The notes below the pieces were generated by a model. The model worked only from the letters and a program-made list of their open reading frames with translations. It was not told the origin of the DNA and did not search any database. Position numbers and translations under genes: made by a program. Of a DNA stretch of 64,000 nucleotides, positions 24,355-50,968 are shown piece by piece. Position 1 is the stretch's first letter, and each line of letters begins with the position of its first letter. Source of the DNA: Dehalococcoidia bacterium (GTDB lineage: Bacteria > Chloroflexota > Dehalococcoidia > GIF9 > DYGU01); NCBI GenBank assembly GCA_042408205.1, contig JBHOQK010000025.1:1597-65596 (forward strand). Reading direction: 5' to 3'.

Positions 24355-24383
24355 TAGACTTATTAGAACATTAGTGCTAATAT
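24355..24383 (+). promoter_or_regulatory. promoter of the terminase module (TAGACT-17-TAATAT) containing the conserved element TTAGAACATTAGTGCTAA (24363..24380)
   Basis: The spacer and -10 are almost identical to the promoter at 42449..42477. The ATG at 24390 lies 6 nt after the -10 box, with no SD. Confidence 0.5.
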
Positions 24384-24389
24384 ATAGCC

Positions 24390-24578
24390 ATGAAGCTTTT
24401 AAAGTTAGCCTTAGAAACCCAGCGCTATGACCTGGCAGCCCATGCCTTAGTCTTTGGCTTAATCAAAGCCAAGATTGACAATGGCAGACAGGGAAATGGT
24501 AAAGACCAGAGAAAGTCAAGACAAGCCAAAAAGACCATCATTCTACGAACAAGCCTTAAAGGAAGCCGAAAAGCTTGA
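24390..24578 (+). CDS. possible leaderless small ORF (62 aa), uncertain
   Basis: The ATG lies 6 nt downstream of the predicted -10. The first ~30 aa look helical and the remainder is a basic tail. It overlaps the next ORF in the +1 frame. Confidence 0.25.
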   Translation: MKLLKLALETQRYDLAAHALVFGLIKAKIDNGRQGNGKDQRKSRQAKKTIILRTSLKGSRKA

Positions 24579-24831
24579 ACTCCAAGAAGCTTTAGGCATT
24601 GATGGGATTGACCAGGAAATAGCGCTACTAAGGATAAAACTCAGGGAGCTTATTGTGTCTCAGCCCGATAGAATAGATTTACACCTTGAAGCTGCTTCTA
24701 CTATCGCCCGGTTAGTTAGAACCAGATACTTGATCACCAAGGAGCAAAAGAAGTCCCTAAAGGAAGCTATCACTAAAGTCATCACCGAAATTGCTGTTCC
24801 TTTAGGCGTTAAAGTGTTAATGAGGGAGTAA
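24481..24831 (+). CDS. hypothetical protein immediately upstream of the large terminase (small-terminase candidate)
   Basis: The position is the only evidence. Its stop is 1 nt from the terminase ATG, the protein is helical and charged, and I recognise no motif. Confidence 0.4.
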   Translation: MADREMVKTRESQDKPKRPSFYEQALKEAEKLELQEALGIDGIDQEIALLRIKLRELIVSQPDRIDLHLEAASTIARLVRTRYLITKEQKKSLKEAITKVITEIAVPLGVKVLMRE

Positions 24832-24832
24832 C

Positions 24833-26212
24833 ATGAAGTTAAGACCATATCAATTAGAAGTGGCTAAAGCCGTAGTCGAAAGTGTCATCGAAAAGAAAGG
24901 CTTAACCTTCTCCGTAGAAATAGCCCGGCAGGGAGGGAAAAATGAACTCTCTGCCCATTTGGAGGTACTTCTTTTGACTCTGTTTATGGCTAAAGGTGGT
25001 AATGCCGTTAAATGTTCTCCTACCTTTAAGCCCCAGACTATTATCTCAATGATGCGACTTAAGGAAAGACTTGATGAGTTCGGCTTTACTGGTATTTATC
25101 GTCCTGAAATGGGCTATATCCTTCGCTTGGGGAATGCTTGCCAAATCTTTTTATCTGCCGATGAGCAAGCCTCCGTAGTCGGTCATACTGCCGATATCCT
25201 CTTAGAAATTGATGAAAGTCAAGATGTCAGTAAAGACAAATATACTAAGGATTTCCGACCCATGGCTTCAGCCTACAACACTACTACCGTCCATTACGGC
25301 ACGACCTGGGATGATACCACTCTCTTGGAAGAGATAAAGCAAATGAACTTAGAGCTGGAAAAGAAAGACGGCATCAAAAGACATTTTCGCTATGACTGGC
25401 AGGAAGTAGGTAAATATAACCCCGATTATTTAGCCTTTGTAGAAAGTGAACGGGAAAGGTTAGGCGAAAATCATCCCCTGTTTTTAACCCAATATGCTCT
25501 TAAACCCATAAGAGGCGGTGGTGGCTTTCTAACCAATCTTCAGATTGCCCAGATGTTAGGCAATCATCCCAGACAAAAATACCGAGAAGAAGGTAAAACT
25601 TATATTGCCGGCATTGACTTAGCTGGGCAGGAAGAACAATTAGATGAGTTAATTCTCACCAGACCCTCCCGGGATGCCACTGTTATCACCATTGCTGAAT
25701 TAGACCTTCGCCACCAATCCGAAGCTAACTTAGTTCAGCCAAGTCTAAAAATAGTCGAACACTATGCCTGGATTGGCAAAAAACACACCGAAGCCATAAA
25801 CACCATTATTGACTTAATGAGAAATACTTGGAATATCAGTAAAGTAGTAGTCGATGCCACGGGAATTGGTGAGCCCATCGCAGCCATCCTAAAACAAGCC
25901 CTGGGAAGTAAGGTCGTTCCCTTCGTCTTTACCCAGAAATCTAAATCAGAACTGGGCTTTGAACTTTTAGCCTTTATCAACTCAGGCAGGCTAAAAATCT
26001 ACCGGCAAGATGGCTCAGAAGATTATAAAGAACTAATGTATCAGCTTGAGAAAGCTAAGTCCGTTTACCGCCCTAACCAGACCCTAAACTTCTTTGTCGA
26101 CCCGCAAGACGGGCACGACGATTATCTAATGAGCTTAGCCCTCTTAGTTTTTGGGGCTAAAGAATGGCAACCCCGAGTAGCTCGGGGTTTGACTTCAAAT
26201 AAGGGTTGGTAA
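24833..26212 (+). CDS. phage terminase large subunit-like protein
   Basis: 459 aa. Walker A-like ARQGGKNE and Walker B-like ILLEIDESQ in the N-terminal half. RNase-H-like nuclease pattern in the C-terminal half (IAGIDLAG ... VVVDATGIG ... GHDDYLMSLAL). SD gagggag. Confidence 0.7.
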   Translation: MKLRPYQLEVAKAVVESVIEKKGLTFSVEIARQGGKNELSAHLEVLLLTLFMAKGGNAVKCSPTFKPQTIISMMRLKERLDEFGFTGIYRPEMGYILRLGNACQIFLSADEQASVVGHTADILLEIDESQDVSKDKYTKDFRPMASAYNTTTVHYGTTWDDTTLLEEIKQMNLELEKKDGIKRHFRYDWQEVGKYNPDYLAFVESERERLGENHPLFLTQYALKPIRGGGGFLTNLQIAQMLGNHPRQKYREEGKTYIAGIDLAGQEEQLDELILTRPSRDATVITIAELDLRHQSEANLVQPSLKIVEHYAWIGKKHTEAINTIIDLMRNTWNISKVVVDATGIGEPIAAILKQALGSKVVPFVFTQKSKSELGFELLAFINSGRLKIYRQDGSEDYKELMYQLEKAKSVYRPNQTLNFFVDPQDGHDDYLMSLALLVFGAKEWQPRVARGLTSNKGW

Positions 26213-27437: not shown

Positions 27438-29207
27438 CTATTCCTCCAATTTCATTTGTTTTAATACTTGGCGCAGGCGGAAAATTATAGCCCCTATTAG
27501 CAAAATAAATCCTATAACCGAGACGATAAATAGCCAGGTCTGTATCAAACCAACTCGGAAGGATTGGGGAGTTGTCCACGGGCTTTCATTTTGAGCCCCA
27601 TCTACAGCTTTTACTCTCCAATAATAAATACCGTAGCTTAAAGCTTCTTTACTGGTTAATTTATAAGTAGTTTCATTTAGGTTAACTTTGCGCAAACTAA
27701 GATTGGTAAAGTCTTCGGTCTTAGCTATTTCCAGATTATAACTGACGCCACTGGGGTCAGTAACGGGAGACCAGCTAAATTGGGGGGTAGCTTTACCTAA
27801 GAGATTGACCCGGGCTCCCGGGGATGGCAATAGGAGATTTGGGGTTGGTGGTGGGGTTGTTTCCATAGTTACTGAAGAAATAACAGAATTACCAGCAGCA
27901 TCTTTAACTTCTATTTTATGTCCTCCACCTTTGCTTTTGGGAGCTTTGAAGGTAATAGTGAAACTACCAGTAGTATCTGTTATTGCTGTAGCTACTTCCA
28001 GAGTGTCATAAATAATGGTTATAGGTGAATTCTTAGCAAAGCCACTGCCGACAATAGTAATCGTTGTGCCTACAGCTATGTTAGTTGGGTTAACTTTTAT
28101 GGCGGAAGTTACAGTAAAGATTAGGTCGGGGATTTCGGTATCTGGGGTAATAGTCCCGGAGGCATCAATAATATGACTACCTTTGGCTCCGGGTGGCACT
28201 TCCAAAGTAGTTATCCACGAACCCGTAGCATCGGCGGTAATATCGCTTTTAACCACATTTCCATCATAAAGGAGGCGGATATTCTTTTCATTTCCAGCAA
28301 AGCCGCTACCAGTAATGGTTATGGTACTCCATACTGGTGCTGAAGTTGGCTCAACCTTTATCCTGGGGGCAATAGTAAAAATAACATCAGGAACTTCGGT
28401 AGCTAAGGTAGTGCCCATAGCATCAATGATATGATCGCCTCGGATAGCCGTCGGCACTGAAAAGGTAGCTGTCCAGCTTCCTTTGTCATCGGCGGCAATA
28501 CCTGTTTTAACGGCAGTGCCAGCAAAGGTAACCCGGATATTCGTTTCATTGGCGTTAAAGCCGGTGCCAGTAACGGTGACTAAAGTACCGACCCCGCCTG
28601 AGGTAGGGGATAGGCTGATTTTTGGGGTGACGGTGAAGGTTCCAGCTGGCACCTCGGTTTCTAAAGTGATCGCGCTAAAGCCAACAACCTGATGGGCTCC
28701 CTTAGCACTTATCGGCACGGTAAAAGTCGTTGTCCAGGAGCCACTGCTATCGGCGGTGATGCCTGTTTTTTGCTCTATACCATCATAAGTTATTTTGATA
28801 TTAGGTTCGGTAGCTGTAAAGCCCCTGCCAGTGACTGTGACAGTAGTCCCCACTGGTCCACTGCTTGGGGTTAGGCTAATACTTGGGGTGACTCGGAAAG
28901 TTTTACTGTCAGTGTTTGGAGGGGAGGCATCATCAGTAACAGTAATAGTATGGTTACCCTTAACGCTGGGGGGGATAGTGAAAGCGGCAGTAATTGTTCC
29001 CCCTTGAACTAATCCCCGAGCCATTTCCACCCCATCATAAGTGACTCTGAAGTTAATACCGCTAAAACCACTCCCAGTGACGGCGACAGCAGTACCTACT
29101 GGACCTGAATCGGGAGTGAGGCTGATGCTGGCAGCAGCATTAACACCTCTCGGTATTAAAGTTATCCCGAGGAAAACTATCAAAAAAGCCCAAATTTTTA
29201 TTTTCAT
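27438..29207 (-). CDS. secreted IPT/TIG-like repeat protein with C-terminal Fn3-like YYWRV module and TM anchor
   Basis: Signal peptide. At least six ~85-aa repeats of the form ISLTP.SGPVGT.VTVTG.GF...I.VTYDG. The C-terminal module is FSWSPVTDPSGVSYNLEIA...YYWRVKAVDGAQNESPW followed by a hydrophobic helix. Confidence 0.7.
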   Translation of the reverse strand: MKIKIWAFLIVFLGITLIPRGVNAAASISLTPDSGPVGTAVAVTGSGFSGINFRVTYDGVEMARGLVQGGTITAAFTIPPSVKGNHTITVTDDASPPNTDSKTFRVTPSISLTPSSGPVGTTVTVTGRGFTATEPNIKITYDGIEQKTGITADSSGSWTTTFTVPISAKGAHQVVGFSAITLETEVPAGTFTVTPKISLSPTSGGVGTLVTVTGTGFNANETNIRVTFAGTAVKTGIAADDKGSWTATFSVPTAIRGDHIIDAMGTTLATEVPDVIFTIAPRIKVEPTSAPVWSTITITGSGFAGNEKNIRLLYDGNVVKSDITADATGSWITTLEVPPGAKGSHIIDASGTITPDTEIPDLIFTVTSAIKVNPTNIAVGTTITIVGSGFAKNSPITIIYDTLEVATAITDTTGSFTITFKAPKSKGGGHKIEVKDAAGNSVISSVTMETTPPPTPNLLLPSPGARVNLLGKATPQFSWSPVTDPSGVSYNLEIAKTEDFTNLSLRKVNLNETTYKLTSKEALSYGIYYWRVKAVDGAQNESPWTTPQSFRVGLIQTWLFIVSVIGFILLIGAIIFRLRQVLKQMKLEE

Positions 29208-36382: not shown

Positions 36383-36384
36383 AG

Positions 36385-36795: not shown

Positions 36796-37135
36796 AAAGA
36801 ACCACTTCCTGAGCTAAAACTTGCTTTAAAAAGCCCCTCTGTTTCATTTGGTCAAACTCTTCAACGGTATAACATATAATATCAGCAGCCACGGGCAAGC
36901 TGAGAGAAGCATAAATTTCCCTGAGCCTATCGATAAAACTTTTATCACTATCCATTACAATCAGGATATCTAAGTCAGTAAATAGGTCAGCCCTCCCTTG
37001 AGCATAAGAGCCGAAGAGGCTGACTCTTTTGATATCACTTCTGTGGCAGAGCTCCCTTTTAACTTTCTCTACGGAAGCTTTAAGAAGCTCCACATATTCC
37101 TTTCGCTTTTGGGCTATTTTTTGGTTGATATCCAT
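36776..37135 (-). CDS. nucleotidyltransferase-domain protein (MNT-type)
   Basis: VSLFGSYAQGRADLFTDLDILIV motif. The start overlaps the upstream stop (TAATG). Confidence 0.75.
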   Translation of the reverse strand: MDINQKIAQKRKEYVELLKASVEKVKRELCHRSDIKRVSLFGSYAQGRADLFTDLDILIVMDSDKSFIDRLREIYASLSLPVAADIICYTVEEFDQMKQRGFLKQVLAQEVVLYEKKSY

Positions 37136-38457
37136 TAGTAATAAAACATGCTTTTCAGCCAGCGGAAAAAGCCAACTATGAGGCGGATGATAAGCCAGAG
37201 GCTGATAATGGCGGCTATAACGCCAGCAAGAACAAGGCTCCAGAGGGGGAAGAAGCCGACTTGGAAGGGGTGGGGGGCAATGACCCAGGGGCTTTCATTG
37301 CCAGCTCCATCCACGGCTTTTACTCTCCAATAATATCTTCCCGGAGGCATTTTCTCCTTCGTTTTATATTCAGGCTCCGTCAGTCCTGACCGCCTTAGAT
37401 AAGGGGGGAAGAAATTTAAGTCTTTGGCTACCTCCAAAGTATAACTAACGCCACTGGGGTCAGTGACTTTTGTCCAAGTGAAGGTAACCTGACTTCCTCC
37501 ATACCAATTAATACGGCTAGTGGGGGAAATGGGCATTGGGGCTGGTGGCGGTGTTCTTTCCAAGAATAAGGTCATATCTAAAGTAGCGGTATTGCCGGCA
37601 GTATCGGTAGCCGTAATAGTTGGTTTTAAAGTGGTGCCCATTCCTAAGGTAAAGGTAGCGGTAAAGGTGCCTAAGGAGTTAGTCTTTAGGGGGGAGGGGT
37701 CGGTAGTTATGGTAGTACCGTTATATTTTACGGTTACAGTGCGCTCCGCGCCAAAGCCTTTACCGGTGATAGTAATTGGTTTGCCTATTTCTGCCGGGGA
37801 GGGAGTGATGATAATCACTGGCTTGACTTCCAGTTTAAGAGGTGGCACCTCTTCCTCTGGGGTAGAAATACTGGAAGCGCGCAAGATATGATCCCCGGCA
37901 GTAGCTTCGGGTATGGTAACCTGGGTAGTAAAGCTGCCTAAGCTATTAACCAAAATATTGTCTTTAATAACCTGGCCATCCAGAGTTACTTTAGCTGTAT
38001 CATTAGCCACAAAACCCTTGCCCGTTACGGTAACTGTTCCCCCGGGTATAACGGTTTTTGGCTCTAAGAAAAGGCTTGGGGTAATGTAAAAAGCTGGAGC
38101 CACAATAGCGTCCCGAGCTCCGAGAGGGACGATGTATAGGGGATGGCGACCGTAATGGTCTTCAGGGATAGTGAAAGTGACGGAGAACTTTAAGGGATGG
38201 TCTAAAGGAGCTCCAGTTTTCCCCTCCACTAATTTTGGTCCGATCGTAGAGTTCCAGTGGACGCTAAAGGGGCTATCAGGGATATCAATACTCCCCTTAA
38301 GGTTAACCTGAGTTCCCACCGGACCTTGGGCTGGGGTTAAGGTGATGTTCTGGGCTAATGATGGTGCTGCAAAGAGTAAGAAGCTAACTATCAAAGCTAA
38401 GAAAATTACTCCTCTCAGGCTCACCATTTTAGATCTTACTAACCCCAGATTCATCAT
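37135..38457 (-). CDS. secreted IPT/TIG-like repeat protein with Fn3-like YYWRV module and TM anchor (paralog of 27438..29207)
   Basis: Signal peptide and repeats (LTPAQGPVGTQV..., EPKTVIPGGTVTVTGKGF...). The C-terminus is FTWTKVTDPSGVSYTLEVA...YYWRVKAVDGAGNESPW plus a hydrophobic helix. Confidence 0.65.
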   Translation of the reverse strand: MMNLGLVRSKMVSLRGVIFLALIVSFLLFAAPSLAQNITLTPAQGPVGTQVNLKGSIDIPDSPFSVHWNSTIGPKLVEGKTGAPLDHPLKFSVTFTIPEDHYGRHPLYIVPLGARDAIVAPAFYITPSLFLEPKTVIPGGTVTVTGKGFVANDTAKVTLDGQVIKDNILVNSLGSFTTQVTIPEATAGDHILRASSISTPEEEVPPLKLEVKPVIIITPSPAEIGKPITITGKGFGAERTVTVKYNGTTITTDPSPLKTNSLGTFTATFTLGMGTTLKPTITATDTAGNTATLDMTLFLERTPPPAPMPISPTSRINWYGGSQVTFTWTKVTDPSGVSYTLEVAKDLNFFPPYLRRSGLTEPEYKTKEKMPPGRYYWRVKAVDGAGNESPWVIAPHPFQVGFFPLWSLVLAGVIAAIISLWLIIRLIVGFFRWLKSMFYY

Positions 38458-42324: not shown

Positions 42325-42337
42325 CTTGTCAAGACCC
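42325..42337. repeat. 13-nt direct repeat copy 1 (CTTGTCAAGACCC, contains the palindrome CTTGWCAAG)
   Basis: Exact copy of 42380..42392, with starts 55 nt apart, in the divergent intergenic region. Confidence 0.85.
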
Positions 42338-42379
42338 AATTTGTTAAAGAGCTACTTCTTCCACCACCATTTTACCACG

Positions 42380-42392
42380 CTTGTCAAGACCC
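42380..42392. repeat. 13-nt direct repeat copy 2 (CTTGTCAAGACCC)
   Basis: Exact copy of 42325..42337. Confidence 0.85.
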
Positions 42393-42448
42393 CCTTTTAT
42401 AACGAGGTACTAAGATCCCACAACCAATAAGCCCCGGTCATTTTTCCC

Positions 42449-42485: not shown

Positions 42486-42740
42486 ATGATAGAGTTAGAG
42501 GAATGGGAATATCGGGATGAGGGGTGTGAGGTATTTCATAGTTGTCTTAACTGTCCGTTACCGAGGTGTGTGGAGGAGGAGCCGCGGGGGCGGCAGAAGT
42601 TACGGCAGAGGTTGAGGGATGAGGTAATGAGGGATTTAAGGCGGCAGGGGAAGACGACGGCGGAAATTGCGGCTATTTTTGGGGTTAGTCCCAGGACAGT
42701 AAGACGGGCATTACATCGGAGCCGACATGACCAACTTTGA
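42486..42740 (+). CDS. small Cys-cluster + helix-turn-helix protein (regulator or small-terminase-like)
   Basis: C-x5-C-x2-C-x4-C cluster (CEVFHSCLNCPLPRC), then a basic region and the HTH TTAEIAAIFGVSPRTVRRAL. I prefer the ATG at 42486 to the GTG at 42468. Confidence 0.5.
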   Translation: MIELEEWEYRDEGCEVFHSCLNCPLPRCVEEEPRGRQKLRQRLRDEVMRDLRRQGKTTAEIAAIFGVSPRTVRRALHRSRHDQL

Positions 42741-44109
42741 CCCTCAGATATTAATCAATTTAGACCAAGACCGGCTTAGGCGGTATCGGGAGAACTTGGA
42801 TTTTTATAATGGCAACCAGTGGCAAGGCTCGTCTCGAGAGCGGCGTTTGGTGTTTAACTATGCTAAAGTGGCTATTGACAAAGTCACCAGCTACCTCTGC
42901 CAAGGCTTTAATTTTGCCGTTGACCCGGTCACTGCTGAAGCTACTGAAACTGCTCGCACCGCCGAACAAATCCTAAGACAAGTTTATGATGAAAATAATT
43001 TGGCTCAATTAGACTATGAAACCGAGATCGATACGGCGATTTTAGGGGATGGGTGTTACAAGGTTATCTGGGATATTAAGGAGAAGCGAGTTAAAGTTAC
43101 TGCTCCGGACGTCTCGGGCATTTTTGCCTGGTGGTGGGGGGATGATATTAGTCGAGTGTGGCGAGTGGCGTCTAAATATACTTTGTCCCAGGAGGAAGTC
43201 CAGTTAGCCTATGGGGTTAAGGCGCCGAAGAAGCAAACCACCATTATTGAAGTCTGGACAGATACGGATTTTGAGCTTTATATTGATAACCAGCTTCACC
43301 AAAAAAAGCCTAACCCTTATGGCTTTATCCCCTTCATCATCTTCCCTAACTTAAGACAGCCAAAACAGTTTTGGGGGATATCCGATATCCCGCCCTTAAT
43401 GGAAGCGCAGCGGGAGCTAAACCGAGCCATGTCTCAACTTTCCCGAATTTTAGAACTTTCCGGCAACCCTATTGCCGTCTTAGAAAATGTCGATACTGCC
43501 GAAGGCATTAAAGTCCAGCCTGGGGCTGTGTGGACACTTCCCGAAGATGCCCGAGCTTATCTTTTAGACCTGCTCCAAGGGGGTGGCGTCAGACTCCATA
43601 TCGACTATATCGAGCTACTTTACCGCTGCCTTCACGACCTCTCTGAAACCCCCAGAGCCGTTTTCGGCGGTATTGAACGAGAACTCTCCGGCGTTGCCCT
43701 GGAAATCGAAACCCAGTCCCTCCTCCAAAAAGTTAACCGAAAACGAACTATTAGAACCGCTGTCTATAAAAAGCGTAACTCGATGATATTATCTCTAATA
43801 CAAATGTTTAGCCAACACTCGTTCCCGGGTATTCGGCATCGGATAGTTTGGGGAGCAATAATACCTCAAGACAGGGCGCGACAAGTCCAGAATGAGCAGT
43901 TACTGGTTCAAGCTGGGGTTCATTCCCGGCGGCGGGCAATGGACGAATTAGGCATTGAGGATCCGGATCTGGAATTTGAGCGCTGGCTTGAGGAGCGGCG
44001 GCGGATTTTAGAGATGAACTTAGAATATCGAGCCCGGTCACGCCGTGGTGAGCGAGGGAGAGCTTTTGCCGCCGACATGACTGAGGCTTTACCAGAAATC
44101 CCAGATTAA
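42727..44109 (+). CDS. phage portal protein-like
   Basis: 460 aa. The N-terminal LRRYRENLDFYNGNQW block is typical of SPP1-gp6-type portals. It sits between the HTH gene and the scaffold/capsid genes. Confidence 0.7.
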   Translation: MTNFDPQILINLDQDRLRRYRENLDFYNGNQWQGSSRERRLVFNYAKVAIDKVTSYLCQGFNFAVDPVTAEATETARTAEQILRQVYDENNLAQLDYETEIDTAILGDGCYKVIWDIKEKRVKVTAPDVSGIFAWWWGDDISRVWRVASKYTLSQEEVQLAYGVKAPKKQTTIIEVWTDTDFELYIDNQLHQKKPNPYGFIPFIIFPNLRQPKQFWGISDIPPLMEAQRELNRAMSQLSRILELSGNPIAVLENVDTAEGIKVQPGAVWTLPEDARAYLLDLLQGGGVRLHIDYIELLYRCLHDLSETPRAVFGGIERELSGVALEIETQSLLQKVNRKRTIRTAVYKKRNSMILSLIQMFSQHSFPGIRHRIVWGAIIPQDRARQVQNEQLLVQAGVHSRRRAMDELGIEDPDLEFERWLEERRRILEMNLEYRARSRRGERGRAFAADMTEALPEIPD

Positions 44110-44121
44110 AGGAGGTTTATC

Positions 44122-44559
44122 GTGGTCGAAGAAACTACCACCACTAATGACAGTCTTACCTTAGACGAACGGGAAGCTATCACAGCCCAACTGGAAGCCG
44201 AAATTAAGGCAAAAAGGGAAAAAGACCAGACTATTATTAATCTCCAAGCCGAAATTAACCGCCTTACCCAGGAAAAAGACCTCTTAACCCAAGCCTTATC
44301 CCAGTCGGTGATGAAATATCGGGAGCTTATTATCTCTCAGCACCCTTATTTAGCCGATTTTATCCAAGGAAACTCAATAGAGGAAATTGATGCCTCTTTA
44401 GCCAAGGCTAAAGCTTTAATGGAGAAGGTAAGAACGGCTTTGGAGACAGAAATTAAGCAGGCTCAAGTTCCCGCCGGGGCTCCAGTAAGGCTTAACCTTA
44501 TCCCTGAAGGCTTAAGCCCCAGGGAGAAAATCGTCTATGGCATAAGCCAGAAAAGATAA
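44122..44559 (+). CDS. scaffolding-like coiled-coil protein
   Basis: 145 aa, highly charged and helical, immediately upstream of the capsid gene. Call is by position only. Confidence 0.4.
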   Translation: MVEETTTTNDSLTLDEREAITAQLEAEIKAKREKDQTIINLQAEINRLTQEKDLLTQALSQSVMKYRELIISQHPYLADFIQGNSIEEIDASLAKAKALMEKVRTALETEIKQAQVPAGAPVRLNLIPEGLSPREKIVYGISQKR

Positions 44560-44579
44560 AAAGGAAGGAGGTGATTTAA

Positions 44580-45521
44580 ATGGCAACAACGCTTGCTGAA
44601 TATGCCAAGCTGTCTCATGATGTTCTGCTTCAAGGCGTCATTGAGACTATCATTAAAGAAAGCCCTATTTTACAAAAACTTCCCTTTATTGAAATTGTTG
44701 GCAATGGTCTCACTTATAACCGAGAAAGAAGCCTCCCCCAAGCCAAATTTTACGCCGTGGATGCCACCTGGGATGCTCCACCTGCCTTAGAGTTTGACCA
44801 ACTCACGGCGGTGCTCAAAATTCTGGGGCAAGATGCTGATGTGGATAATTATGTCAAAGCTACCCGGTCTAATGTCCAGGATATTGAAGCGGCTATTATT
44901 GAGCTTACGGCTAAATCCGTCAGGCATCGGTTTGAGGAAACCTTTATCTACGGCACTACCACCAATTTTTTAGACATGACTGGGGATCCCAATGCCTTTG
45001 ATGGTCTTATCAAGCTCATTAACACCAGTCAAGCCTCAAGTCAGGTCATAACTATGGGTGGCACCGGCGCCAGTCTTACCCTGTCTAAGCTTGACGAGCT
45101 GATTGATGCCGTAAAAGGCGGTAAGCCTGACTTACTCTTAATGAGCCGGCGGAGTCGGCGGAAAATCAATGCCTTAGTCCGAGCCTCCGGAGCTTATCTG
45201 GAAACTGTCAAGGGGGAATTTGGGGAATTCATTCAGCTTTACAACGGCATCCCCATCGGTGTCTCTGACTTTATCCGAGATACCCATGTCTTAACCGGTG
45301 GCTATGAAACTGCCGTTACTGGTGGCACTTGTTCCACTATCTATGCTCTTTGTTTTGGGGAAGGTGCTATCTGTGGCATCACTGGTCCTGGGGGGCTTAT
45401 GGTAGAGAGAATTGGCTCCTTGGAGTCGAAAGATGCCACCAGAACCCGGATAAAGTGGTATTGTGCTATTGCTGACTTTTCTCAGGTTAAGCGGGCAGCT
45501 TTAATCGGTGTCCAAGACTAA
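44580..45521 (+). CDS. major capsid protein-like (HK97-fold family)
   Basis: 313 aa in the position after the scaffold gene. The block pattern (ESPILQKLPF, FDGLIKLI, LSKLDELIDAV, LLLMSRRSRRKINAL, RIKWY) recalls HK97-type capsid families. SD aaggaggtg. Confidence 0.6.
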   Translation: MATTLAEYAKLSHDVLLQGVIETIIKESPILQKLPFIEIVGNGLTYNRERSLPQAKFYAVDATWDAPPALEFDQLTAVLKILGQDADVDNYVKATRSNVQDIEAAIIELTAKSVRHRFEETFIYGTTTNFLDMTGDPNAFDGLIKLINTSQASSQVITMGGTGASLTLSKLDELIDAVKGGKPDLLLMSRRSRRKINALVRASGAYLETVKGEFGEFIQLYNGIPIGVSDFIRDTHVLTGGYETAVTGGTCSTIYALCFGEGAICGITGPGGLMVERIGSLESKDATRTRIKWYCAIADFSQVKRAALIGVQD

Positions 45522-45593
45522 ACTAAGCGGGGGTAAAGCTGGGGATGAGCATAAGCTTAGCTTTACCCCCATTAAAAACTTATAAGGAGATAA

Positions 45594-46205
45594 ATGAATC
45601 TAAACTTGATGCGGGAATTAGTCCGGCGCGATTTAAAAGATGAAGACCCCAGTCAATATCGCTTCACTGATGCTGAAATTGACCGAGCCATCCAGAAAGC
45701 GTTAAGGGAGTTTAGCCGCTATTGCCCCAGGGAAATGAAGTCAACCTTGGCGACTACCCCAGGTAGTAGAAATGTCGATATTTCAAGCTTGACTGATAGA
45801 GTTTCCATTGACCTGGTCGAGTATCCGGTAGACAAATATCCGAAGCAATTCCGCAACTTCTCCATTTATCAGGATACTTTAACCTTAGGCAAGCCTTACG
45901 ACCCAGATAAGGCGGATACTGTCCCTGACGGCTCTAATTGCTATATCTATTGGGGTAAGCTCCATACTTTAGATGCCCAAACTTCTACCATCCCATCCCA
46001 GTATGAAGATTTAGTTGCCTTAGGTGCCGCTGCCTATGCCATTATCGCCCATTCCCAGTATTCTACCGAAAGAATAAACCCAGGAGGCAGAGATACGGAT
46101 AGAGACTATTCCTTCTGGGGTAGGGATAGACTAAGGCAGTTTCAGCAAGAGTTAAAGCGGATAGCCAAAAGCCGAAAATTAAAGGTGAGCCGGTTCTATG
46201 AGTGA
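45594..46205 (+). CDS. hypothetical, possible head-tail adaptor
   Basis: Its position after the capsid gene, and an N-terminus (LVRRDLKDED...FTDAEIDRAIQKAL) resembling gp6-like connector proteins. Weak. Confidence 0.3.
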   Translation: MNLNLMRELVRRDLKDEDPSQYRFTDAEIDRAIQKALREFSRYCPREMKSTLATTPGSRNVDISSLTDRVSIDLVEYPVDKYPKQFRNFSIYQDTLTLGKPYDPDKADTVPDGSNCYIYWGKLHTLDAQTSTIPSQYEDLVALGAAAYAIIAHSQYSTERINPGGRDTDRDYSFWGRDRLRQFQQELKRIAKSRKLKVSRFYE

Positions 46206-46434: not shown

Positions 46435-46446
46435 TGGAGGTAAAGA

Positions 46447-46794
46447 ATGACTAAAACAAGCCGAGACAAAATTAAAGACGGCTTACCCAAGACTAAAGAC
46501 GGGCTCCCTTACCAGGCTTATGCTATTGTGGGTGATAAAGATGACCCGGAGACGTGGAAACTACCCCATCATACTAAAGCCATTTGGCGAGCCTTAAAAG
46601 GTAAAATCGGGCATTACCGAACTACCGACTGGGATAGGCTTCCCTTAGCCGTCGCCGCTTTATCCCCTGGGGGATACCGGGGTCGACGGGTAGAAGCTAC
46701 CCCAGAGCAAATTCTGGAAGCTGCCCGACATTTAGCCCGTCATTATACTGAAAATGATAAGTCTCTCCCTGATACTTTGTTAGCCTTAATATGA
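46447..46794 (+). CDS. hypothetical protein (phage-like module)
   Basis: 115-aa ORF with SD ggaggt, tightly packed with its neighbours. Confidence 0.4.
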   Translation: MTKTSRDKIKDGLPKTKDGLPYQAYAIVGDKDDPETWKLPHHTKAIWRALKGKIGHYRTTDWDRLPLAVAALSPGGYRGRRVEATPEQILEAARHLARHYTENDKSLPDTLLALI

Positions 46795-47075
46795 TATTAG
46801 AAGAGTTAGTTGCCCAATTAGCCTTAAGGCTCACTGCTTTAGAGCGAGCCTTAAAGGAAAAAGGCTTTATTGATGAAGCTGAAGTTCGTTGTCCCAGTGA
46901 TGTCTCTCTTCCTGAAGACCTGGGGGAAAAAATTAGAGCCTTAAATTGTCCCCAAACCCTGGCACTAATGAGCCAGAAAAGAGAGGATAAACCTTGGGGG
47001 AAGATTGCCGAAATAGAAGCCAGACTAACCACCTTAGAAGCTGAATTAATTAAGAAAGGAGGTGACATAAAATGA
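46791..47075 (+). CDS. hypothetical coiled-coil protein (phage-like module)
   Basis: 94 aa, with 4-nt overlaps to both neighbours. Confidence 0.4.
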   Translation: MILEELVAQLALRLTALERALKEKGFIDEAEVRCPSDVSLPEDLGEKIRALNCPQTLALMSQKREDKPWGKIAEIEARLTTLEAELIKKGGDIK

Positions 47076-47737
47076 TAAACCCCAAAACATCAGAAAAGCC
47101 CTTCTATAAGTCCAAAAAGTTTTGGTATGCAGTAGTCATTGCCGTAGCTGGGATTGCCCGGGAAGCCGGTCTGAATATTCCTATGGAAGCTATTTATGCC
47201 GGTCTTGCCTTAATCTTGGGTCAAGGTCTTGCCGACTTAGGCAAAAACAAGGTGGAAAAAAATGCCTCGCCTGCCCCAGCTTCAGCTGAAGCTTCTCTTT
47301 CCCCTCCGCCATCTCCAGAGGATATACCTCAGCCTGAAACTACTCCTGAAATAAAGCCTGAGGCTCAAATTTTAGAAGAAACAAAAAAGCCTAAGGCTTA
47401 TGAGGAAATGACTCCTTGGGAAGTAGAGCAAGCCCATCTGGCTTATTTTGAGGAGAGGCTTAGGAAAGCCAGAGAATATCTCAGGTTTGTCCAAGACTTA
47501 TATAAAGACATCCCCCAGGGGAGGGAAGAAATTGAGCTTGCCCAAACTATGGTTAAAGACGCCGAACATAGCCTTGAGGTAGAAAAGACGCTTATTGAAG
47601 CTGTCAAAACCGGTAAGGCTTTGCCGGTGTGTGAAGCCCATTACTATATCATCGGCTCTAAACCCCCTTGGAAACAGCCAAAAGGTAAGGAAATCGAATA
47701 TCTGGATTATTACCGTAAGTTAGGTTGGAAAATATAG
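47072..47737 (+). CDS. membrane protein with two N-terminal TM helices, Pro/Ala/Glu linker and C-terminal domain
   Basis: FWYAVVIAVAGIA and AIYAGLALILGQGLA hydrophobic segments, a PAPASAEASLSPPPSPEDIPQPETTPE linker, SD aaggaggtg. Confidence 0.45.
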   Translation: MINPKTSEKPFYKSKKFWYAVVIAVAGIAREAGLNIPMEAIYAGLALILGQGLADLGKNKVEKNASPAPASAEASLSPPPSPEDIPQPETTPEIKPEAQILEETKKPKAYEEMTPWEVEQAHLAYFEERLRKAREYLRFVQDLYKDIPQGREEIELAQTMVKDAEHSLEVEKTLIEAVKTGKALPVCEAHYYIIGSKPPWKQPKGKEIEYLDYYRKLGWKI

Positions 47738-47744
47738 AGGAACT

Positions 47745-48191
47745 ATGGCAGTTTACTCTATAACCTTAAATGCCCAGACCAGAGCTTCTGGTACTACCGA
47801 GCTCACTATTGTTAACCCAGCTAATTCGGGGAGGGCAATAAGAATTCTGGATATCTTCTTTGGCACTGGTGGTACGGCTTCGGCGGCTTCCCGAATAACG
47901 GTGAGAGAGCTTTCTGGCACTGCCGACGGCACTGGTACCCAAGTTACCCCCAGAAATTTAACTATCGGTGGTGCTCCATCCGTAGCTACCGTCAAAAAAG
48001 ACCATACTGCCGAGCCAACTTATGCCAATGTCGAGCCCTTAATAGTATTTGCCTTTAATGATATGGCTTTTGTCCGCTGGGTGGCTATTAGAAATTTGGA
48101 AGAAATTGTCCTTGAGCCCGGGAGAGGTATCGGCTTTAGAAATGAAGCCGGCACTACTGCCTTGTCTATGACCGTTATTTATGAAGAGTAA
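47745..48191 (+). CDS. hypothetical beta-rich protein (phage-like module)
   Basis: 148-aa ORF, tightly packed. No motif recognised. Confidence 0.4.
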   Translation: MAVYSITLNAQTRASGTTELTIVNPANSGRAIRILDIFFGTGGTASAASRITVRELSGTADGTGTQVTPRNLTIGGAPSVATVKKDHTAEPTYANVEPLIVFAFNDMAFVRWVAIRNLEEIVLEPGRGIGFRNEAGTTALSMTVIYEE

Positions 48192-48203
48192 GAAGGGTTA
48201 ACC

Positions 48204-50264
48204 ATGTCTATAAGCCTGTCCGAAAATCTAAACCCAAACCAGCTCACTATCCCCAGAAGGATTAAAGTCCTCTCCGCCCCTCTTCTTAATGAGCAAAGAA
48301 AACACGGCTTAAAAAAGCCCGTCCTTGACGCCCAAATCTATCCTTATTTCGCCGGTGTCCCCAGACTTTGTTGGCAAAAGCTTTATTCCGGTACCGAAGA
48401 AGATGGCTCTATTGCCTTAGCCTTTGATGGACAAGGGAGCTTATACCGGGGAAGGAGCCTCGGCACTAACCCAGCTGTCTACCGCCAGAAAGTAACTAAC
48501 CCAGCCCCGGGTTCTGACTTCTCTAACTGGACACAAGCCTTTTCGGCGAAAGATGGTAAATTCGCCTTATGCGCCCAAGGTGCTGAAATTTGCTTTTTCT
48601 ACTTCAACCCAAGTGATTACAATTATATCTATCAGCATCGCTCCACAAATTACGGGGCTACCTGGACATCATCTAAGATAACTCTCTACCTCACCCCAAA
48701 CTATGCCACTAACTACCTTGCCGCTGACTTTAAGCCAAATGGCGATATCTATCTGTTTAACGCTAACTACCACCCAAACTATACCGGACGGGCAATTGTA
48801 TACGTCCTGAGGCGAATTAATAACCTTTGGGACACCTACCCAACCATAATCCTCGAGTTTGGTCAAGACATTCACACCGGTATCGCCGTTAAATATGACG
48901 GTGACTGGAATTTGCTCATCACCATAAAAAGAGGCAACATCTTCTATCTCTATAAAGTCATTTATGGTGATGGCTATAGGCTACGAGAAGAGCAGACATC
49001 TACCCCAGAAGTAGTCATGTCTATGCCGGCAGGGCAAGGCTATGAGTGGTACCACCCTTTCTTAATCAACCTCCCCCAAGAAAAGCGCCATAGTTTCTTA
49101 ATGTCCTTTTCGGAAAGATATACTGGGCAGGAAGCTATATCACGACCTTTCTTAGCCTATGGGCTTAAAGAAACTGATTTTTACGATACCCTGTGGCGGG
49201 AGCCTCTCCCCTTTAACTGTCATAGCCAATATGGCTTAGCCTTAGCCTGTTTCGGTAATTATGCTTGGGCAGCTACTCCTTCTGGGGTTTGGCGGGCTCC
49301 TATCGTAACTAACCCTATCACTATAACGGAAACGGAAATTCTCAGCTTAGACGAAGATATAACCCAAAACTGGGCTCAGCTTACCCTGGAAATAGACAAT
49401 GCCAAAGGCAGTTACCAGAACCTTAACCGAGGCGATGAAATTAGGCTTAGCGGTGGTTATTATACCAAAGCCGGTAGAGACAAAGTTGAGCTTAATCATT
49501 ATTGGATTGAAAGAATTGAGCACCGAATGACTAACCCCAACCAAAGAACCTTAGTTTTAACTGCCTTAAGCCCGTGGCAACTCCTTGACCAATGGACACC
49601 CCGGCATAGCCTCCGCTGGCAACAAAATACCACCGTTTATCATATCTTAAGGCAAATCCTGGCTAAAGTTGGTATCCCCTTAGATATAGTGTCGGTAAGC
49701 CCAACTTGCCTTGGCTTTATGCCTGATTTTGCCATAAACCCGGGTGATAATGGCTTAAATGCCGTAAAACGGCTCCTATCCTTTGTCCCCGATGTTTTAA
49801 TTTTCTGCCAAGGTAAAGCTTACTTGGTAAACCCAGCTCAAGAAGGTGTCCCAGTCTATGAATATGGTAGTGGTAGCCATCCTATCCTTGAAGTCACTTT
49901 TACCCAAGATACCCCAGAAATAACCCATGTCCAGGTCTTAGGCAGAAGTGACACTACCGATATCATCGTCGAGGACTTTATCTGGGGGGAAATCCAAACT
50001 GGTCTAGACCGCCTTAGCTTTGTCCCAGACCTCAGCCTTACCACTATCCCCCAGGCTAAAGCCAGAGCCCAAGCCATCCTGTCAAAACAGTTAAGTCAAA
50101 GCGTTAAACTCGTTATTCCACCGGATTTCGCCCGAGAACTCTATGACTTAGTCACTATCACTACCCCAGTAATTAAGGCTCAATTCCGCCTTAAAGCCTA
50201 TCAGTTATCTTACCGAGCCCAAACTAATCAGCTCTATGCCATCCTTAGCTTGGCTCAAGGCTAA
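48204..50264 (+). CDS. large tail/baseplate-hub-like protein with N-terminal Asp-box-containing domain
   Basis: 686 aa. An Asp-box (STNYGATW) lies in the N-terminal half. The C-terminal half has a pattern reminiscent of gpD/VgrG-type hubs (LVLTALSPWQLLDQWTPRHSLRWQQNTTVYHILRQILAKVGI). Confidence 0.4.
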   Translation: MSISLSENLNPNQLTIPRRIKVLSAPLLNEQRKHGLKKPVLDAQIYPYFAGVPRLCWQKLYSGTEEDGSIALAFDGQGSLYRGRSLGTNPAVYRQKVTNPAPGSDFSNWTQAFSAKDGKFALCAQGAEICFFYFNPSDYNYIYQHRSTNYGATWTSSKITLYLTPNYATNYLAADFKPNGDIYLFNANYHPNYTGRAIVYVLRRINNLWDTYPTIILEFGQDIHTGIAVKYDGDWNLLITIKRGNIFYLYKVIYGDGYRLREEQTSTPEVVMSMPAGQGYEWYHPFLINLPQEKRHSFLMSFSERYTGQEAISRPFLAYGLKETDFYDTLWREPLPFNCHSQYGLALACFGNYAWAATPSGVWRAPIVTNPITITETEILSLDEDITQNWAQLTLEIDNAKGSYQNLNRGDEIRLSGGYYTKAGRDKVELNHYWIERIEHRMTNPNQRTLVLTALSPWQLLDQWTPRHSLRWQQNTTVYHILRQILAKVGIPLDIVSVSPTCLGFMPDFAINPGDNGLNAVKRLLSFVPDVLIFCQGKAYLVNPAQEGVPVYEYGSGSHPILEVTFTQDTPEITHVQVLGRSDTTDIIVEDFIWGEIQTGLDRLSFVPDLSLTTIPQAKARAQAILSKQLSQSVKLVIPPDFARELYDLVTITTPVIKAQFRLKAYQLSYRAQTNQLYAILSLAQG

Positions 50265-50961: not shown

Positions 50962-50968
50962 CAAATTT

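Follow-up and report, generated by a model that had tools for sequence, protein, structure and literature searches.

The analysed stretch of Dehalococcoidia DNA (64,000 nucleotides, hereafter the window) carries a set of about 13 phage-type genes, 9.6 kb in all, arranged in two modules on the plus strand. Module 1 (24390-26212) comprises a small ORF and the genes of the small and the large terminase (TerS, TerL), module 2 (42486-50264) encodes a Cys4-HTH protein, a portal, a scaffold, an HK97-fold capsid protein (MCP), an adaptor, five small proteins and a baseplate hub. Between the modules lie genes for a CetZ-like tubulin, TIG/Ig proteins, a BNR protein and NTase/HEPN pairs as well as rho, tal and pyrG; the remaining genes of the window are core metabolism genes and dnaN. 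An earlier note on this DNA had given these module coordinates and gene identities and had placed tubulin-like, surface protein, rho, tal, pyrG and NTase/HEPN genes in the gap; all of this holds, and the terminase, portal, capsid and hub identities were confirmed by profile and fold searches.

In module 1 the "one or two small ORFs" noted before TerL proved to be a 62-aa ORF and TerS. The 62-aa ORF (24390..24578) has about 40 conserved N-terminal residues and shares part of its length, in the +1 frame, with the small terminase gene; at least 16 loci keep both the peptide and this frame offset, and family searches with the ORF gave no match. The 118-aa ORF (24475..24831, probably starting at the ATG at 24481) lies directly 5′ of TerL and is conserved in 19 loci. 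Its homologue in locus L055 matches phrog_1889 (3e-9) and phrog_509, terminase small subunit; by sequence, the 118-aa ORF is a small terminase subunit. TerL (24833..26212), an ATPase with an RNaseH-like nuclease, matches Pfam Terminase_6C (5e-7) and four terminase-large PHROGs. Its Walker A (R32-Q-G-G-K36) and Walker B (D127-E128) motifs and the acidic residues of the nuclease (D262, D341, D429/D430) are invariant across 14 homologues. The best of 3798 TerL homologues are 68-84% identical and labelled Dehalococcoidia or Chloroflexi; the nearest TerL of an isolated phage is 33% identical.

Module 2 opens with a Cys4 zinc-ribbon and HTH protein (42486..42740; HTH_23 4.5e-9, Sigma70_r4_2 1.6e-8), a candidate regulator, which has a weak late-activator PHROG match and stands 5′ of the portal gene in 66 loci. 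The SPP1-type portal (42727..44109; SPP1_portal 9e-26, phrog_64 2e-38) is present in 77 loci with a median identity of 63%. The ORF at 44122..44559, whose family matches are of the coiled-coil type only and which has homologues in 80 loci, is assigned as the scaffolding protein from its position between portal and MCP. The HK97-fold MCP (44580..45521) matches phrog_212 (4e-61), SU10_MCP and Phage_capsid. It is followed by a head-to-tail adaptor (45594..46205, found in 69 loci), whose SU10_adaptor match (1e-5) scores 26.5 bits, slightly below the Pfam cut-off of 27; the L001 homologue also has SU10_adaptor among its precomputed matches. The next five proteins, g78 (46198-46434, conserved in 45 loci), g115 (46447-46794, in 36 loci), g94 (46791-47075), g221 (47072-47737) and g148 (47745-48191), the last three conserved in the closest relatives only, found no match in family or PDB searches, and are probably connector or tail-completion proteins. 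With two hydrophobic N-terminal helices and an all-helical AF2 model of low confidence, g221 could be a membrane protein, a holin-like protein or something like a short tape measure. In the AlphaFold2 model (pLDDT 88) of the 686-aa tail-tip/baseplate hub (48204..50264) the N-terminal half is a sialidase-like beta-propeller. The C-terminal approximately 340 residues match the gp27, Mu gp44 and VgrG hubs (Foldseek E 4e-14, TM about 0.7), thus the label "hub-like" was right.

Convergent with the hub gene is a minus-strand gene for a LuxR-family response regulator (50281..51042; Pfam Response_reg and GerE). In many loci the hub gene is followed by one or two LuxR-type regulators, to which a histidine kinase and an Xre protein are often added, and judged by this position the response regulator may be linked to the particle system. 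Two minus-strand genes in the gap, a TIG/Ig-domain surface protein (27438..29207) and an Ig-domain surface protein adjoining module 2 (37135..38457), belong to the spacer family that separates the modules in most relatives.

As the earlier note had stated, the window holds no tRNA, and an iterative search revealed no integrase homologue in it; att site, AlpA-type regulator and primase-replicase were likewise not found at the locus. At the sequence level none of the locus genes could be recognised as a tail tube, tape measure, sheath or lysis gene, so that the particle may fall short of a complete, infective one. The earlier claim that tape measure, tube and lysis genes are missing stands at that level, with the qualification that g221 has hydrophobic helices and an all-helical model. 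Of the supposed lack of a compositional break, the GC part was borne out (0.459 against 0.455), whereas the tetranucleotide usage of the modules is farther from the remaining window than that of 99% of control segments, although the difference is mild.

Both modules are headed by the same promoter architecture, read from the sequence. P1 (24343..24389, plus strand) consists of an upstream element GACATTTTT (24343-24351), a palindromic SOS-type box TTAGAACATTAGTGCTAA (24363-24380) and an extended -10, TGc-TAATAT (24375-24383). Translation would begin at the ATG at 24390, 7 nt past the -10, which makes a leaderless mRNA probable. P2 (42437..42485, plus strand) has the upstream element GTCATTTTT (42437-42445), a -35 TTGCTT (42449-42454), the SOS-type box TTAGAACATAAGTGCTAA (42457-42474) and the extended -10 TGc-TAAATT (42469-42477). 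At both modules a TAGAAC-N4-GTGCTA palindrome fills the promoter spacer and overlaps the extended -10. The 18-mer TTAGAACATWAGTGCTAA occurs in the window only at 24363 and 42457 (chance expectation 0.05), which bears out the shared promoter element of the earlier note. The element is conserved before both modules across the clade: about 70 further Dehalococcoidia loci have the architecture, with the consensus GACAAAA-N5-6-TTGAC-N6-7-TAGAACATATGTGCTA-nTAT, 5′ of both modules and nowhere else, and 16 other loci have that of P1 before TerS-TerL. The 77 AGAAC-N4-GTNCT sites in 1.26 Mb of locus DNA all lie just 5′ of either module, in one constant orientation; this DNA is confined to within about 10 kb of a capsid or terminase gene, without any SOS gene being noticed there, therefore the absence of the motif elsewhere in it is uninformative. 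Metagenome sites showing the complete architecture all stand before a module wherever the sequence that follows is long enough for a verdict. 5′ of P2, a 32-nt direct repeat (CTTGTCAAGACCC...) is present in two copies (42325..42411, plus strand), and other loci have recurrent TGTCAA motifs 5′ of their conserved GACAAAA element. A second regulator may bind at the repeat.

The same 16-mer palindrome as at the two modules stands directly 5′ of recA in three unrelated metagenome contigs, which makes the palindrome very probably a LexA box on sequence grounds; it also precedes a radical-SAM gene, read, without a family search, as one of DNA-repair type. From the motif class we infer LexA binding at both operators. 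Dehalococcoides LexA reportedly (Fernandez de Henestrosa et al. 2002, J Bacteriol 184:6073) binds GAAC-N4-GTTC, but in most sites the right arm is GTGC. This could be explained by the overlapping extended -10 or by a different regulator. The palindrome might then be the operator of a dedicated regulator (the Cys4-HTH, Xre or LuxR protein) responding to a signal other than DNA damage, a reading otherwise compatible with the particle-system explanation given below. A regulator gene opens the head operon, two-component genes are linked to the locus, a second conserved upstream element is present and, in the 1.26 Mb, the motif is restricted to the two modules. The last point loses its force with the confinement of that DNA to the capsid/terminase vicinity, the G of the right arm is accounted for by the TGn of the extended -10, and the left arm and the spacing fit the Gram-positive/Dehalococcoides LexA box. 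Moreover, the box is a perfect GAAC-N4-GTTC in several loci (L014, L026, L028, L030, L046). With the recA sites on the other side of the scale, we regard a dedicated regulator as doubtful, yet with an appreciable chance of being right.

We found no earlier description of a Dehalococcoidia capsid locus. The MCP has 5447 homologues and occurs, at 63-80% identity, in at least 586 species-level genomes, all labelled Dehalococcoidia, Dehalococcoidales or Chloroflexi; the nearest MCP of an isolated phage is 37-39% identical. There is one MCP locus per genome (80 loci fetched), and the gene was uninterrupted in 79 of the 79 species-level genomes checked. Across species the 5′ flank (c21) and the 3′ flanks (LuxR, histidine kinase, Xre, FAD-oxidoreductase, YqeY and radical-SAM genes) are conserved, the window sharing LuxR, FAD472 and YqeY with its relatives. 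Pairwise MCP and portal identities track that of the neighbouring FAD-oxidoreductase gene (Spearman 0.96 and 0.87, respectively), and the absolute values are similar. Between the window and its closest relative, TerL, portal and MCP are 83%, 85% and 80% identical, the housekeeping genes rho, pyrG and tal 89%, 87% and 84%. The dN of TerL, portal and MCP is 0.11-0.16 at saturated synonymous sites (pS 0.75-0.85), a low non-synonymous divergence that bears out the purifying selection envisaged in the earlier note.

The distance between TerL and the head genes varies: the modules are contiguous, 2.7-7.2 kb apart or more than 7 kb apart, in many species a few kb, and in 19 species one or two minus-strand TIG/Ig genes are the sole spacer. 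The 16-kb split described for the window is thus real but one state of a variable character. Relatives with TerL identities of 83% and 69% have both modules with the same split (CetZ-TIG-rho-tal-pyrG beside TerL), so the split is old and not a recent rearrangement. A minority of relatives (L055, L012, L210, L235, L237) are contiguous and carry a tyrosine integrase, as does L014, where the integrase lies beside tRNA-Arg and the SOS box is perfect. The earlier note had raised the possibility that relatives carry these genes as one prophage with integrase; this applies to that minority, whereas no integrase occurs within +/-10 kb of any split-type locus. The contiguous, integrase-bearing relatives look like the mobile ancestor type, and from L014 the SOS-box wiring is probably older than domestication. 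In a rough NJ tree the integrase-bearing relatives (MCP identity 67-72%) are interleaved with the fixed forms; there may have been exchange between the two.

The explanation we favour, with somewhat better than even confidence, is that the locus is a fixed, vertically inherited, phage-derived, SOS-induced particle system like a gene transfer agent (GTA) or PBSX. It is a strong candidate for a new, independently evolved GTA of putative function, which supports, at the level of sequence, the domesticated GTA-like interpretation of the earlier note. If the palindrome is the host LexA operator, both operons would be silent until DNA damage triggers LexA self-cleavage. After induction, portal, scaffold and capsid protein would build proheads, to be filled by TerS/TerL in a headful mode; because the locus lacks an excision/replication function, any chromosomal DNA at hand would serve as substrate. 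The portal would be closed by the adaptor, the small connector proteins and the hub, which would also make up a short tail tip. Cell lysis would release the particles, and g221 may disrupt the membrane. Dehalococcoides have no peptidoglycan wall; if the relatives lack it too, an endolysin would not be needed. The particles would carry host DNA to related cells, as GTAs do, or at least out of the cell, like PBSX. A second layer of control may be provided by the Cys4-HTH protein together with the neighbouring response regulator, acting at the conserved upstream GACAAAA/TGTCAA elements. GTA genes can be dispersed over several loci (PMC5026251), and LexA takes part in GTA control (PMC6473078). In a metavirome of D. 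mccartyi cultures packaged chromosomal regions were not strongly indicated, but that host may lack the locus (bioRxiv 10.64898/2026.09.15.751708).

The conservation, selection and SOS-type control would fit equally well a domesticated particle that does not transfer DNA, such as an SOS-induced killing or suicide device (PBSX-like) or anti-phage interference by way of the host terminase and capsids. Lacking a recognisable tube and tape measure the particle may not inject DNA, and the sialidase-like propeller of the hub could act on surfaces. TerS, TerL and portal are, however, as conserved as the capsid, which is hard to explain unless filled heads matter, and the hub together with lectin-like LamG proteins in many relatives points to binding of target cells; we consider a non-transfer role unlikely.

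A selfish element, either a fixed or helper-dependent satellite (cf-PICI-like) or a virus with its remaining genes elsewhere, would borrow tails and replication from another phage and package its own or its partner's genome. This is suggested by the tyrosine integrase of the contiguous relatives, with L014 at tRNA-Arg and its SOS box, by the fact that, as in satellites, no tube, tape measure or replication genes can be recognised in these relatives, and by at least 589 contigs of this kind listed as viral in IMG/VR. But none of these contigs exceeds 18 kb, and L213 among them is in fact the contig of genome locus L012, a bin contig of that size. The absence of integrase within +/-10 kb of the window locus and the split-type loci, the rho, pyrG and other housekeeping genes between the modules, the conserved flanks and the co-divergence with a host gene also speak against a selfish element, which we judge quite improbable. 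A decaying, functionless prophage remnant, intact by chance, would account for the presence of only part of a phage genome, with tail and lysis genes missing. It is already contradicted by the spread over at least 586 species with an MCP 63-80% identical and uninterrupted in 79/79, by the low dN despite saturated synonymous sites, by the invariant catalytic residues of TerL and by the promoter conserved at both modules, and is very improbable indeed.

Among isolated phages, siphoviruses of the Xp15, Ab18 and vB_CtyS-FA67 type are closest by MCP (37-39%, full length), and the fold of the hub is common to sipho- and myovirus tail tips. Their genomes, however, are 47-59 kb long and include complete tail, replication and lysis modules, and the identity is far below that among the Dehalococcoidia chromosomal copies (63-86%). 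In the LexA-repressed temperate phages GIL01 of Bacillus thuringiensis and CTXphi, SOS boxes lie in the promoters and induction occurs by LexA cleavage. The SOS box inside phage promoters is shared with the present locus, but GIL01 and CTXphi are complete self-propagating viruses, whereas here only packaging, head and hub genes remain. With cf-PICIs the locus shares the compact TerS, TerL, portal, capsid and connector set without tail tube genes, a layout resembled by the integrase-bearing relatives L012, L055 and L014. Unlike cf-PICIs, the locus in the window lacks an integrase, an att site, an AlpA-type regulator and a primase-replicase, is split by housekeeping genes, co-diverges with the host and encodes a hub. 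PBSX of Bacillus subtilis is SOS-inducible, packages random host DNA in small heads and cannot propagate. Like the present locus, PBSX and PBSX-like defective prophages are fixed in the chromosome, but PBSX is a contiguous myovirus-like element of about 28 kb with sheath, tube, lysis genes and its own Xre repressor; here the genes are split, no sheath or tube was found and control is apparently direct, by a LexA-type box.

The RcGTA-type agents of Alphaproteobacteria (Rhodogtaviriformidae) are likewise chromosomally fixed, caudovirus-derived head and packaging genes. They are fixed, vertically inherited, under purifying selection, host-controlled and spread over more than one locus (PMC9662315, PMC5026251), and LexA influences their production (PMC6473078). 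Vertical inheritance, purifying selection and more than one locus are features in common, as probably is control by host regulators; for the present locus a GTA function is putative. The two differ in origin, which is independent: the present locus has an SPP1-type portal and its host phylum is Chloroflexota. It is much smaller, without a recognisable tube or tape measure, and assembles with a scaffold and without a prohead protease, its MCP belonging to phrog_212/SU10_MCP. Finally, RcGTA is under CtrA/GafA control, whereas here an SOS-type operator lies directly within both promoters.

The ORF listing and the profile searches bore out the gene calls that the earlier note had made for both modules. 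Module 1 lies on the plus strand and comprises a 62-aa ORF (24390-24578, from the ORF listing), the gene of the small terminase TerS (118 aa, 24475-24831) and that of the large terminase TerL (459 aa, 24833-26212). TerS was assigned through its homologue in the related locus L055, which matches phrog_1889 and phrog_509. TerL matched Terminase_6C (5e-7) and four large-terminase PHROGs, and alignment of 14 homologues revealed that the Walker A (RQGGK) and Walker B (DE) motifs and the acidic residues of the nuclease are invariant. The 62-aa ORF overlaps the TerS gene in the +1 frame; its N-terminal peptide and its frame offset to TerS are the same in at least 16 diverse loci. The overlap suggests either programmed frameshifting that would extend TerS at its N-terminus or tight coupling of a small gene.

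Module 2, also on the plus strand, starts with a Cys4 and HTH protein (42486-42740; HTH_23, 4.5e-9). It is followed by an SPP1-type portal (PF05133, 42727-44109; 9e-26, and phrog_64, 2e-38), a coiled-coil scaffold between portal and capsid genes (44122-44559), the HK97-fold major capsid protein (MCP, 44580-45521; phrog_212, 4e-61) and an SU10-type adaptor (45594-46205), whose match (1e-5) falls slightly under the Pfam cut-off. Five small proteins (g78, g115, g94, g221 and g148; 46198-48191), none of which had a match in Pfam or PHROGs, precede the 686-aa hub protein (48204-50264). In the closest relative (L002/L003, 8082-9995) the gene call fuses portal and scaffold into a 637-aa product; the window has an ORF for each, with 12 nt between the two.

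Sequence searches with the hub, the adaptor and g221 against PDB sequences gave no match. The hub was identified by Foldseek from an AlphaFold2 model built on 37 homologues (pLDDT 88.3). Its C-terminal ~340 residues superpose on Mu gp44, T4 gp27, VgrG, the phage 80alpha hub and Listeria gp18 (E 4e-14 to 1e-12, TM about 0.6-0.7), and the N-terminal half of the model resembles sialidase-type propellers. The g221 protein (47072-47737), which has homologues in the closest relatives only, has two hydrophobic helices close to its N-terminus (KKFWYAVVIAVAGIA... and AIYAGLALILGQGL); a linker rich in Pro, Ser and Glu follows, and the C-terminal part is helical. Its single-sequence AlphaFold model was of low confidence (pLDDT 63) and was kept out of the fold search; g221 could be a holin-like or membrane-disrupting protein, or a very short tape-measure-like protein. 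Pfam, PHROGs and PDB searches revealed no recognisable tube, tape measure, sheath or endolysin in the window, and no prohead protease family was present there.

The accessory part of the operon turns over and the core is fixed. Fifteen HMMs of clusters that recur unnamed among the accessory and flank genes of relatives did not match the small proteins of the window; the sole exception was the short-ORF cluster c18, whose HMM hits a portion of the hub. When 58 unassigned proteins of relatives were pooled and scanned with Pfam, only LamG lectin domains came up, in one cluster. Many relatives have a LamG/concanavalin-like lectin gene within the structural operon, between the MCP and adaptor genes in L019, L052, L057, L059, L071 and L084, and a LamG gene is also found in L012 (15602-16942). 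In many relatives variable 169-aa and 134-aa families stand directly after the capsid gene. The window has none of these lectin, 169-aa and 134-aa genes.

The two modules have a common promoter architecture. The 18-mer TTAGAACATWAGTGCTAA occurs in the window at positions 24363 and 42457 only, with 0.05 occurrences expected by chance. In 1.26 Mb of related loci the motif AGAAC-N4-GTNCT was found 77 times, always directly upstream of TerS-TerL or HTH-portal and in constant orientation. Alignment of 75 non-redundant sites gave the consensus aaaaa-cGACAAAAt-N5-6-TTGAC-N6-7-TAGAACATATGTGCTA-nTAT. Here TTGAC is the -35 element (replaced by TATAGCC/TGTAGCC in module-1 promoters), the palindrome fills the spacer, and its right arm forms with the following bases an extended -10 (TGn-TAnTAT). 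This overlap could explain why the right arm reads GTGC instead of GTTC. The start codons in the window (GTG 42483, ATG 24390, ATG 42486) are located 6-9 nt after the -10, and both mRNAs are therefore probably leaderless. A generic sigma-70 scan reported neither window promoter, since the -35 hexamers are degenerate; the promoter call is based on the cross-species consensus in place of that scan.

Both window promoters carry TAGAAC-N4-GTGCTA between the -35 and the -10, with one right-arm mismatch to GAAC-N4-GTTC, the Gram-positive box, which the LexA protein of Dehalococcoides reportedly binds. The perfect palindrome is present in L014, L026, L028, L030 and L046. The 16-mer of the window promoters was found unchanged directly upstream of recA in three unrelated metagenome contigs (L096, L196, L206) and upstream of a radical-SAM gene, which was read as DNA-repair type without a family search; three further sites precede genes read as lytic-transglycosylase-like. 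Since the same 16-mer precedes recA and a gene read as repair-type, the palindrome of the two promoters very probably belongs to the LexA operator class. It is possible that it serves a dedicated regulator, not LexA; the sites upstream of recA speak for LexA. A scan of public metagenomes for TAGAACAWWTGTGCTA found at least 120 stretches. Among the matches listed, a module follows 21 of 121 sites, and every site with the full GACAAAA architecture and judgeable downstream sequence precedes a module; the remaining sites are in DNA of very different GC content. A third operon under the same promoter was looked for in this exact 16-mer scan, and the full-architecture sites listed contained none.

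Upstream of the module-2 promoter there is a 32-nt direct repeat starting with CTTGTCAAGACCC, in two copies 55 nt apart (42325-42356 and 42380-42411), and in other species TGTCAA motifs lie upstream of the conserved GACAAAA element. These elements suggest a site for a second regulator, for which the Cys4-HTH protein and the linked response regulator are candidates.

The genes between the modules are all on the minus strand and encode a CetZ-like tubulin, a TIG/Ig protein, rho, tal, pyrG, a BNR/sortilin protein, two NTase/HEPN pairs, an Ig protein and a 1075-aa protein. Module 1 is preceded by genes for radical SAM, Memo, AMMECR1, a second CetZ-like tubulin and RarA, module 2 is followed by a LuxR response regulator (50281-51042), MeaB and FAD oxidoreductase, and the rest of the window consists of core metabolism genes. 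The CetZ-like paralogues (Tubulin + CetZ_C; 21893-22957, plus strand, and 26195-27373, minus strand) flank the RarA-TerS-TerL block, and the position of the CetZ gene convergent with TerL is kept in L004-L007 and L016. CetZ is an archaeal cell-shape tubulin family; the genome here, which has rho, is bacterial. The two adjacent nucleotidyltransferase/HEPN pairs (35980-37135, minus strand) are typical MNT-HEPN toxin-antitoxin cassettes, and a further HEPN gene of this type is found at 60776-61174 (plus strand); the closest relative has no such cassettes at the corresponding position. The window starts with dnaN (48-1175, minus strand), and if dnaN lies near the replication origin here, the distance from the origin to either module may be no more than about 50 kb. 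The record of the complete genome CP070810.1 has its head module at about 62-68 kb. The window contains no tRNA, an Rfam scan of it gave no match and iterative search found no tyrosine-integrase homologue in it.

The locus is widespread in the group. MCP homologues numbered 5447; the best 120 are 65-86% identical, several of them on contigs of 0.17-1.03 Mb named Dehalococcoidia. TerL had 3798 homologues, the best ones 68-84% identical. A relative of the MCP is encoded by at least 586 genomes of a collection in which each species is represented once. The best 80 of these, which have one locus each, are named Dehalococcoidia, Dehalococcoidales, Dehalococcoidaceae or Chloroflexi, except two bins labelled Deltaproteobacteria. 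The nearest isolated phages are siphoviruses, with 37-39% identity for the MCP and 33% for TerL.

Gene order in 40 long loci defined a canonical arrangement: TerS and TerL preceded by a gene of cluster c21 and followed by one or two Ig genes (both kinds in reverse orientation), then HTH, portal, scaffold, MCP, 2-3 variable genes, adaptor, optionally g115, and hub. After the hub come signal-peptidase-like, LuxR, LuxR, histidine-kinase, Xre, FAD-oxidoreductase, YqeY and radical-SAM genes, of which LuxR, FAD-oxidoreductase and YqeY are common to the window. A block of one or two LuxR genes with histidine kinase and Xre after the hub is seen in L021, L034, L051, L061, L076 and L082-L085; the window keeps one LuxR regulator. 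The split synteny that the earlier note had described in the window recurs. Two relatives (TerL 83% and 69% identical) have its exact layout, with TerS-TerL followed by oppositely oriented CetZ, TIG, rho, tal and pyrG genes and the head module about 20 kb on in the same contig.

In a small sample (8-10 genomes) pairwise identity of the MCP and the portal followed that of the adjacent FAD-oxidoreductase (Spearman 0.96 and 0.87, respectively) and was of similar magnitude. The dN/dS check agreed with purifying selection, which the earlier note had proposed to look for: relative to the closest relative dN was low (TerL 0.12, portal 0.11, MCP 0.16; rho, pyrG, tal and radical SAM 0.06-0.11) and synonymous sites were saturated (pS 0.6-0.87 overall), so omega is roughly 0.1 or lower. 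Because of this saturation even against the closest relative, most phage-like genes have no dN/dS ratio. All 79 species genomes checked have an uninterrupted MCP gene.

The earlier note had seen, by eye, no obvious compositional break; this held for GC content (0.459 vs 0.455) and failed for tetranucleotide usage, in which the modules stood farther from the remainder of the window than 99% of the control segment pairs did from each other. The pS to the closest relative is also higher in the phage-like genes (0.74-0.87) than in the housekeeping genes (0.62-0.71). Behind the two deviations there could be a difference in codon usage or in history.

The distance between TerL and portal was scored in 38 informative species genomes. 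TerL was contiguous with the portal in three; in 19 it was 2.7-7.2 kb away, with nothing in the gap but TIG/Ig surface-protein genes, one or two of them, on the minus strand; in one it was inverted. In the other 15, including the complete 1.03-Mb genome CP070810.1, the first 7 kb or more upstream of the head module contained no TerL. Seven distinct contiguous forms (L012, L014, L055, L227, L235, L240, L260) emerged from the genome and IMG/VR loci combined, three of them among the 38, and the seven have no HTH gene before the portal. Tyrosine integrases are encoded in L055 (4480-5868), L235 and L012 (1941-3149), in the last on one strand with HNH, HTH, methyltransferase, nucleotidyltransferase and LamG genes; in L014 the integrase adjoins tRNA-Arg. 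L210 and L237, whose TerL-portal layout was not classified, also have a tyrosine integrase. The box before TerS is missing from L012, L055, L227, L235 and L260 and perfect in L014 and L240. Within +/-10 kb, split-type loci are free of integrases. A rough NJ tree of the MCP places the contiguous forms on several deeper branches, and its large crown contains nothing but loci of the split type with HTH gene and box. We read these forms as a series in which an integrase-bearing element would have become LexA-wired, lost its integrase and been fixed, then received surface-protein genes and later larger separations. Exchange between mobile and fixed forms is also possible, the contiguous forms being spread over several branches of a rough tree that is not robust.

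What kind of element the window carries was judged against published criteria for gene transfer agents (GTAs) and viriforms (PMC9662315): chromosomal structural and packaging genes of caudovirus derivation, vertical transmission, purifying selection, no self-propagation, control by host circuits, DNA delivery to recipient cells, and particles with random host DNA in less than the particle-encoding amount. The window has caudovirus-derived TerS, TerL, portal, scaffold, MCP, adaptor and hub genes between housekeeping flanks; the flanks are conserved, MCP and portal co-diverge with the FAD-oxidoreductase gene in 8-10 genomes, dN is low and the MCP is intact. No genes for integration, excision or replication were found in the 64-kb window or, within +/-10 kb, in split-type loci. 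As to host control, both promoters contain a putative SOS-type operator; as to delivery, there is the hub in the window and lectin-like proteins in relatives, with no tube or tape measure found.

An intact or recently inactivated prophage would be one contiguous element between att repeats, with an integrase and usually at a tRNA. The window has neither tRNA nor integrase, rho, tal and pyrG occupy the 16-kb gap, and the layout is old in relatives. No replication, lysogeny-control or lysis family was found in the window, although some of its small ORFs have no match and g221 may resemble a holin. A prophage rearranged recently would also have separate modules, but relatives at 69-83% TerL identity share the split, which is thus not recent. 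A capsid-forming PICI or satellite fits poorly with the absence of integrase, AlpA-type regulator and primase-replicase from the window and of integrases from split-type loci within +/-10 kb. With PBSX-like defective prophages or tailocins only the hub fold is common, sheath and tube families being absent, and an encapsulin-like compartment would have neither the portal nor the terminase found here.

We put it at somewhat less than an even chance that the locus is an independently evolved GTA, the first in Chloroflexota, present in much of the order Dehalococcoidales, in which about a dozen LexA-wired genes would respond to damage by making capsids with chromosomal DNA. The proposal starts from the gene identities, their intactness, conservation and co-divergence, the absence of mobility genes from the window and the shared LexA-class promoter; the steps of the mechanism are conditional. 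LexA would repress both operons and DNA damage would de-repress them. Proheads would assemble on the portal with the scaffold, in P22/SPP1 style since no protease is present, and TerS/TerL would fill them by headful packaging. The packaged DNA would be chromosomal, because the locus would be unable to excise or replicate. The adaptor, connector proteins and hub would complete a short tail tip, and lysis would release the particles. Dehalococcoides has no peptidoglycan, and if the relatives of the window are alike in this, release would not require an endolysin.

Sediments and aquifers harbour Dehalococcoidia in abundance, and the group is important for bioremediation; reductive dehalogenases, its key traits, are known to move horizontally. 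A GTA, if true, would be a general gene-exchange route for the group and would bear on the spread of dehalogenase genes. Virus catalogues built from metagenomes would then systematically contain false 'viral' contigs derived from it. At least 589 IMG/VR contigs have this MCP, none longer than 18 kb among the matches listed. L213, one of the IMG/VR loci L208-L287, and the genome locus L012 are one and the same bin contig, and many of the IMG/VR contigs are probably this chromosomal locus classed as virus; such entries affect the virus-host and virus-diversity statistics of the group.

To our knowledge only a handful of independently domesticated GTAs exist, none from Chloroflexota, and the literature searched describes neither a GTA nor conserved terminase, portal or capsid genes in Dehalococcoidia. 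The locus would add one such agent with an unusually small gene set and a simple, readable control, the SOS-type operator in both promoters. In its relatives the proposed evolutionary series can be followed, from integrase-bearing contiguous forms through contiguous forms with an SOS box at a tRNA and the surface-gene split to the 16-kb housekeeping split. A 2026 preprint on Dehalococcoides metaviromes (bioRxiv 10.64898/2026.09.15.751708) describes IME1, a different, filamentous element, presents micrographs with 'possible tail-less capsids' and gives no strong evidence of packaging for other D. mccartyi mobile elements or dehalogenase regions.

The locus would work like GTAs (PMC9662315, PMC5026251) or like PBSX. 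The traits that we used as criteria for the RcGTA family are an HK97-type portal, prohead protease, tube, tape measure, an alphaproteobacterial host and CtrA/GafA control. Family assignments set the locus apart from it by the SPP1-type portal, the lack of protease, tube and tape measure and the Chloroflexota host, and we rate it as a candidate for an independent domestication in a new phylum, with minimal gene content and direct SOS wiring.
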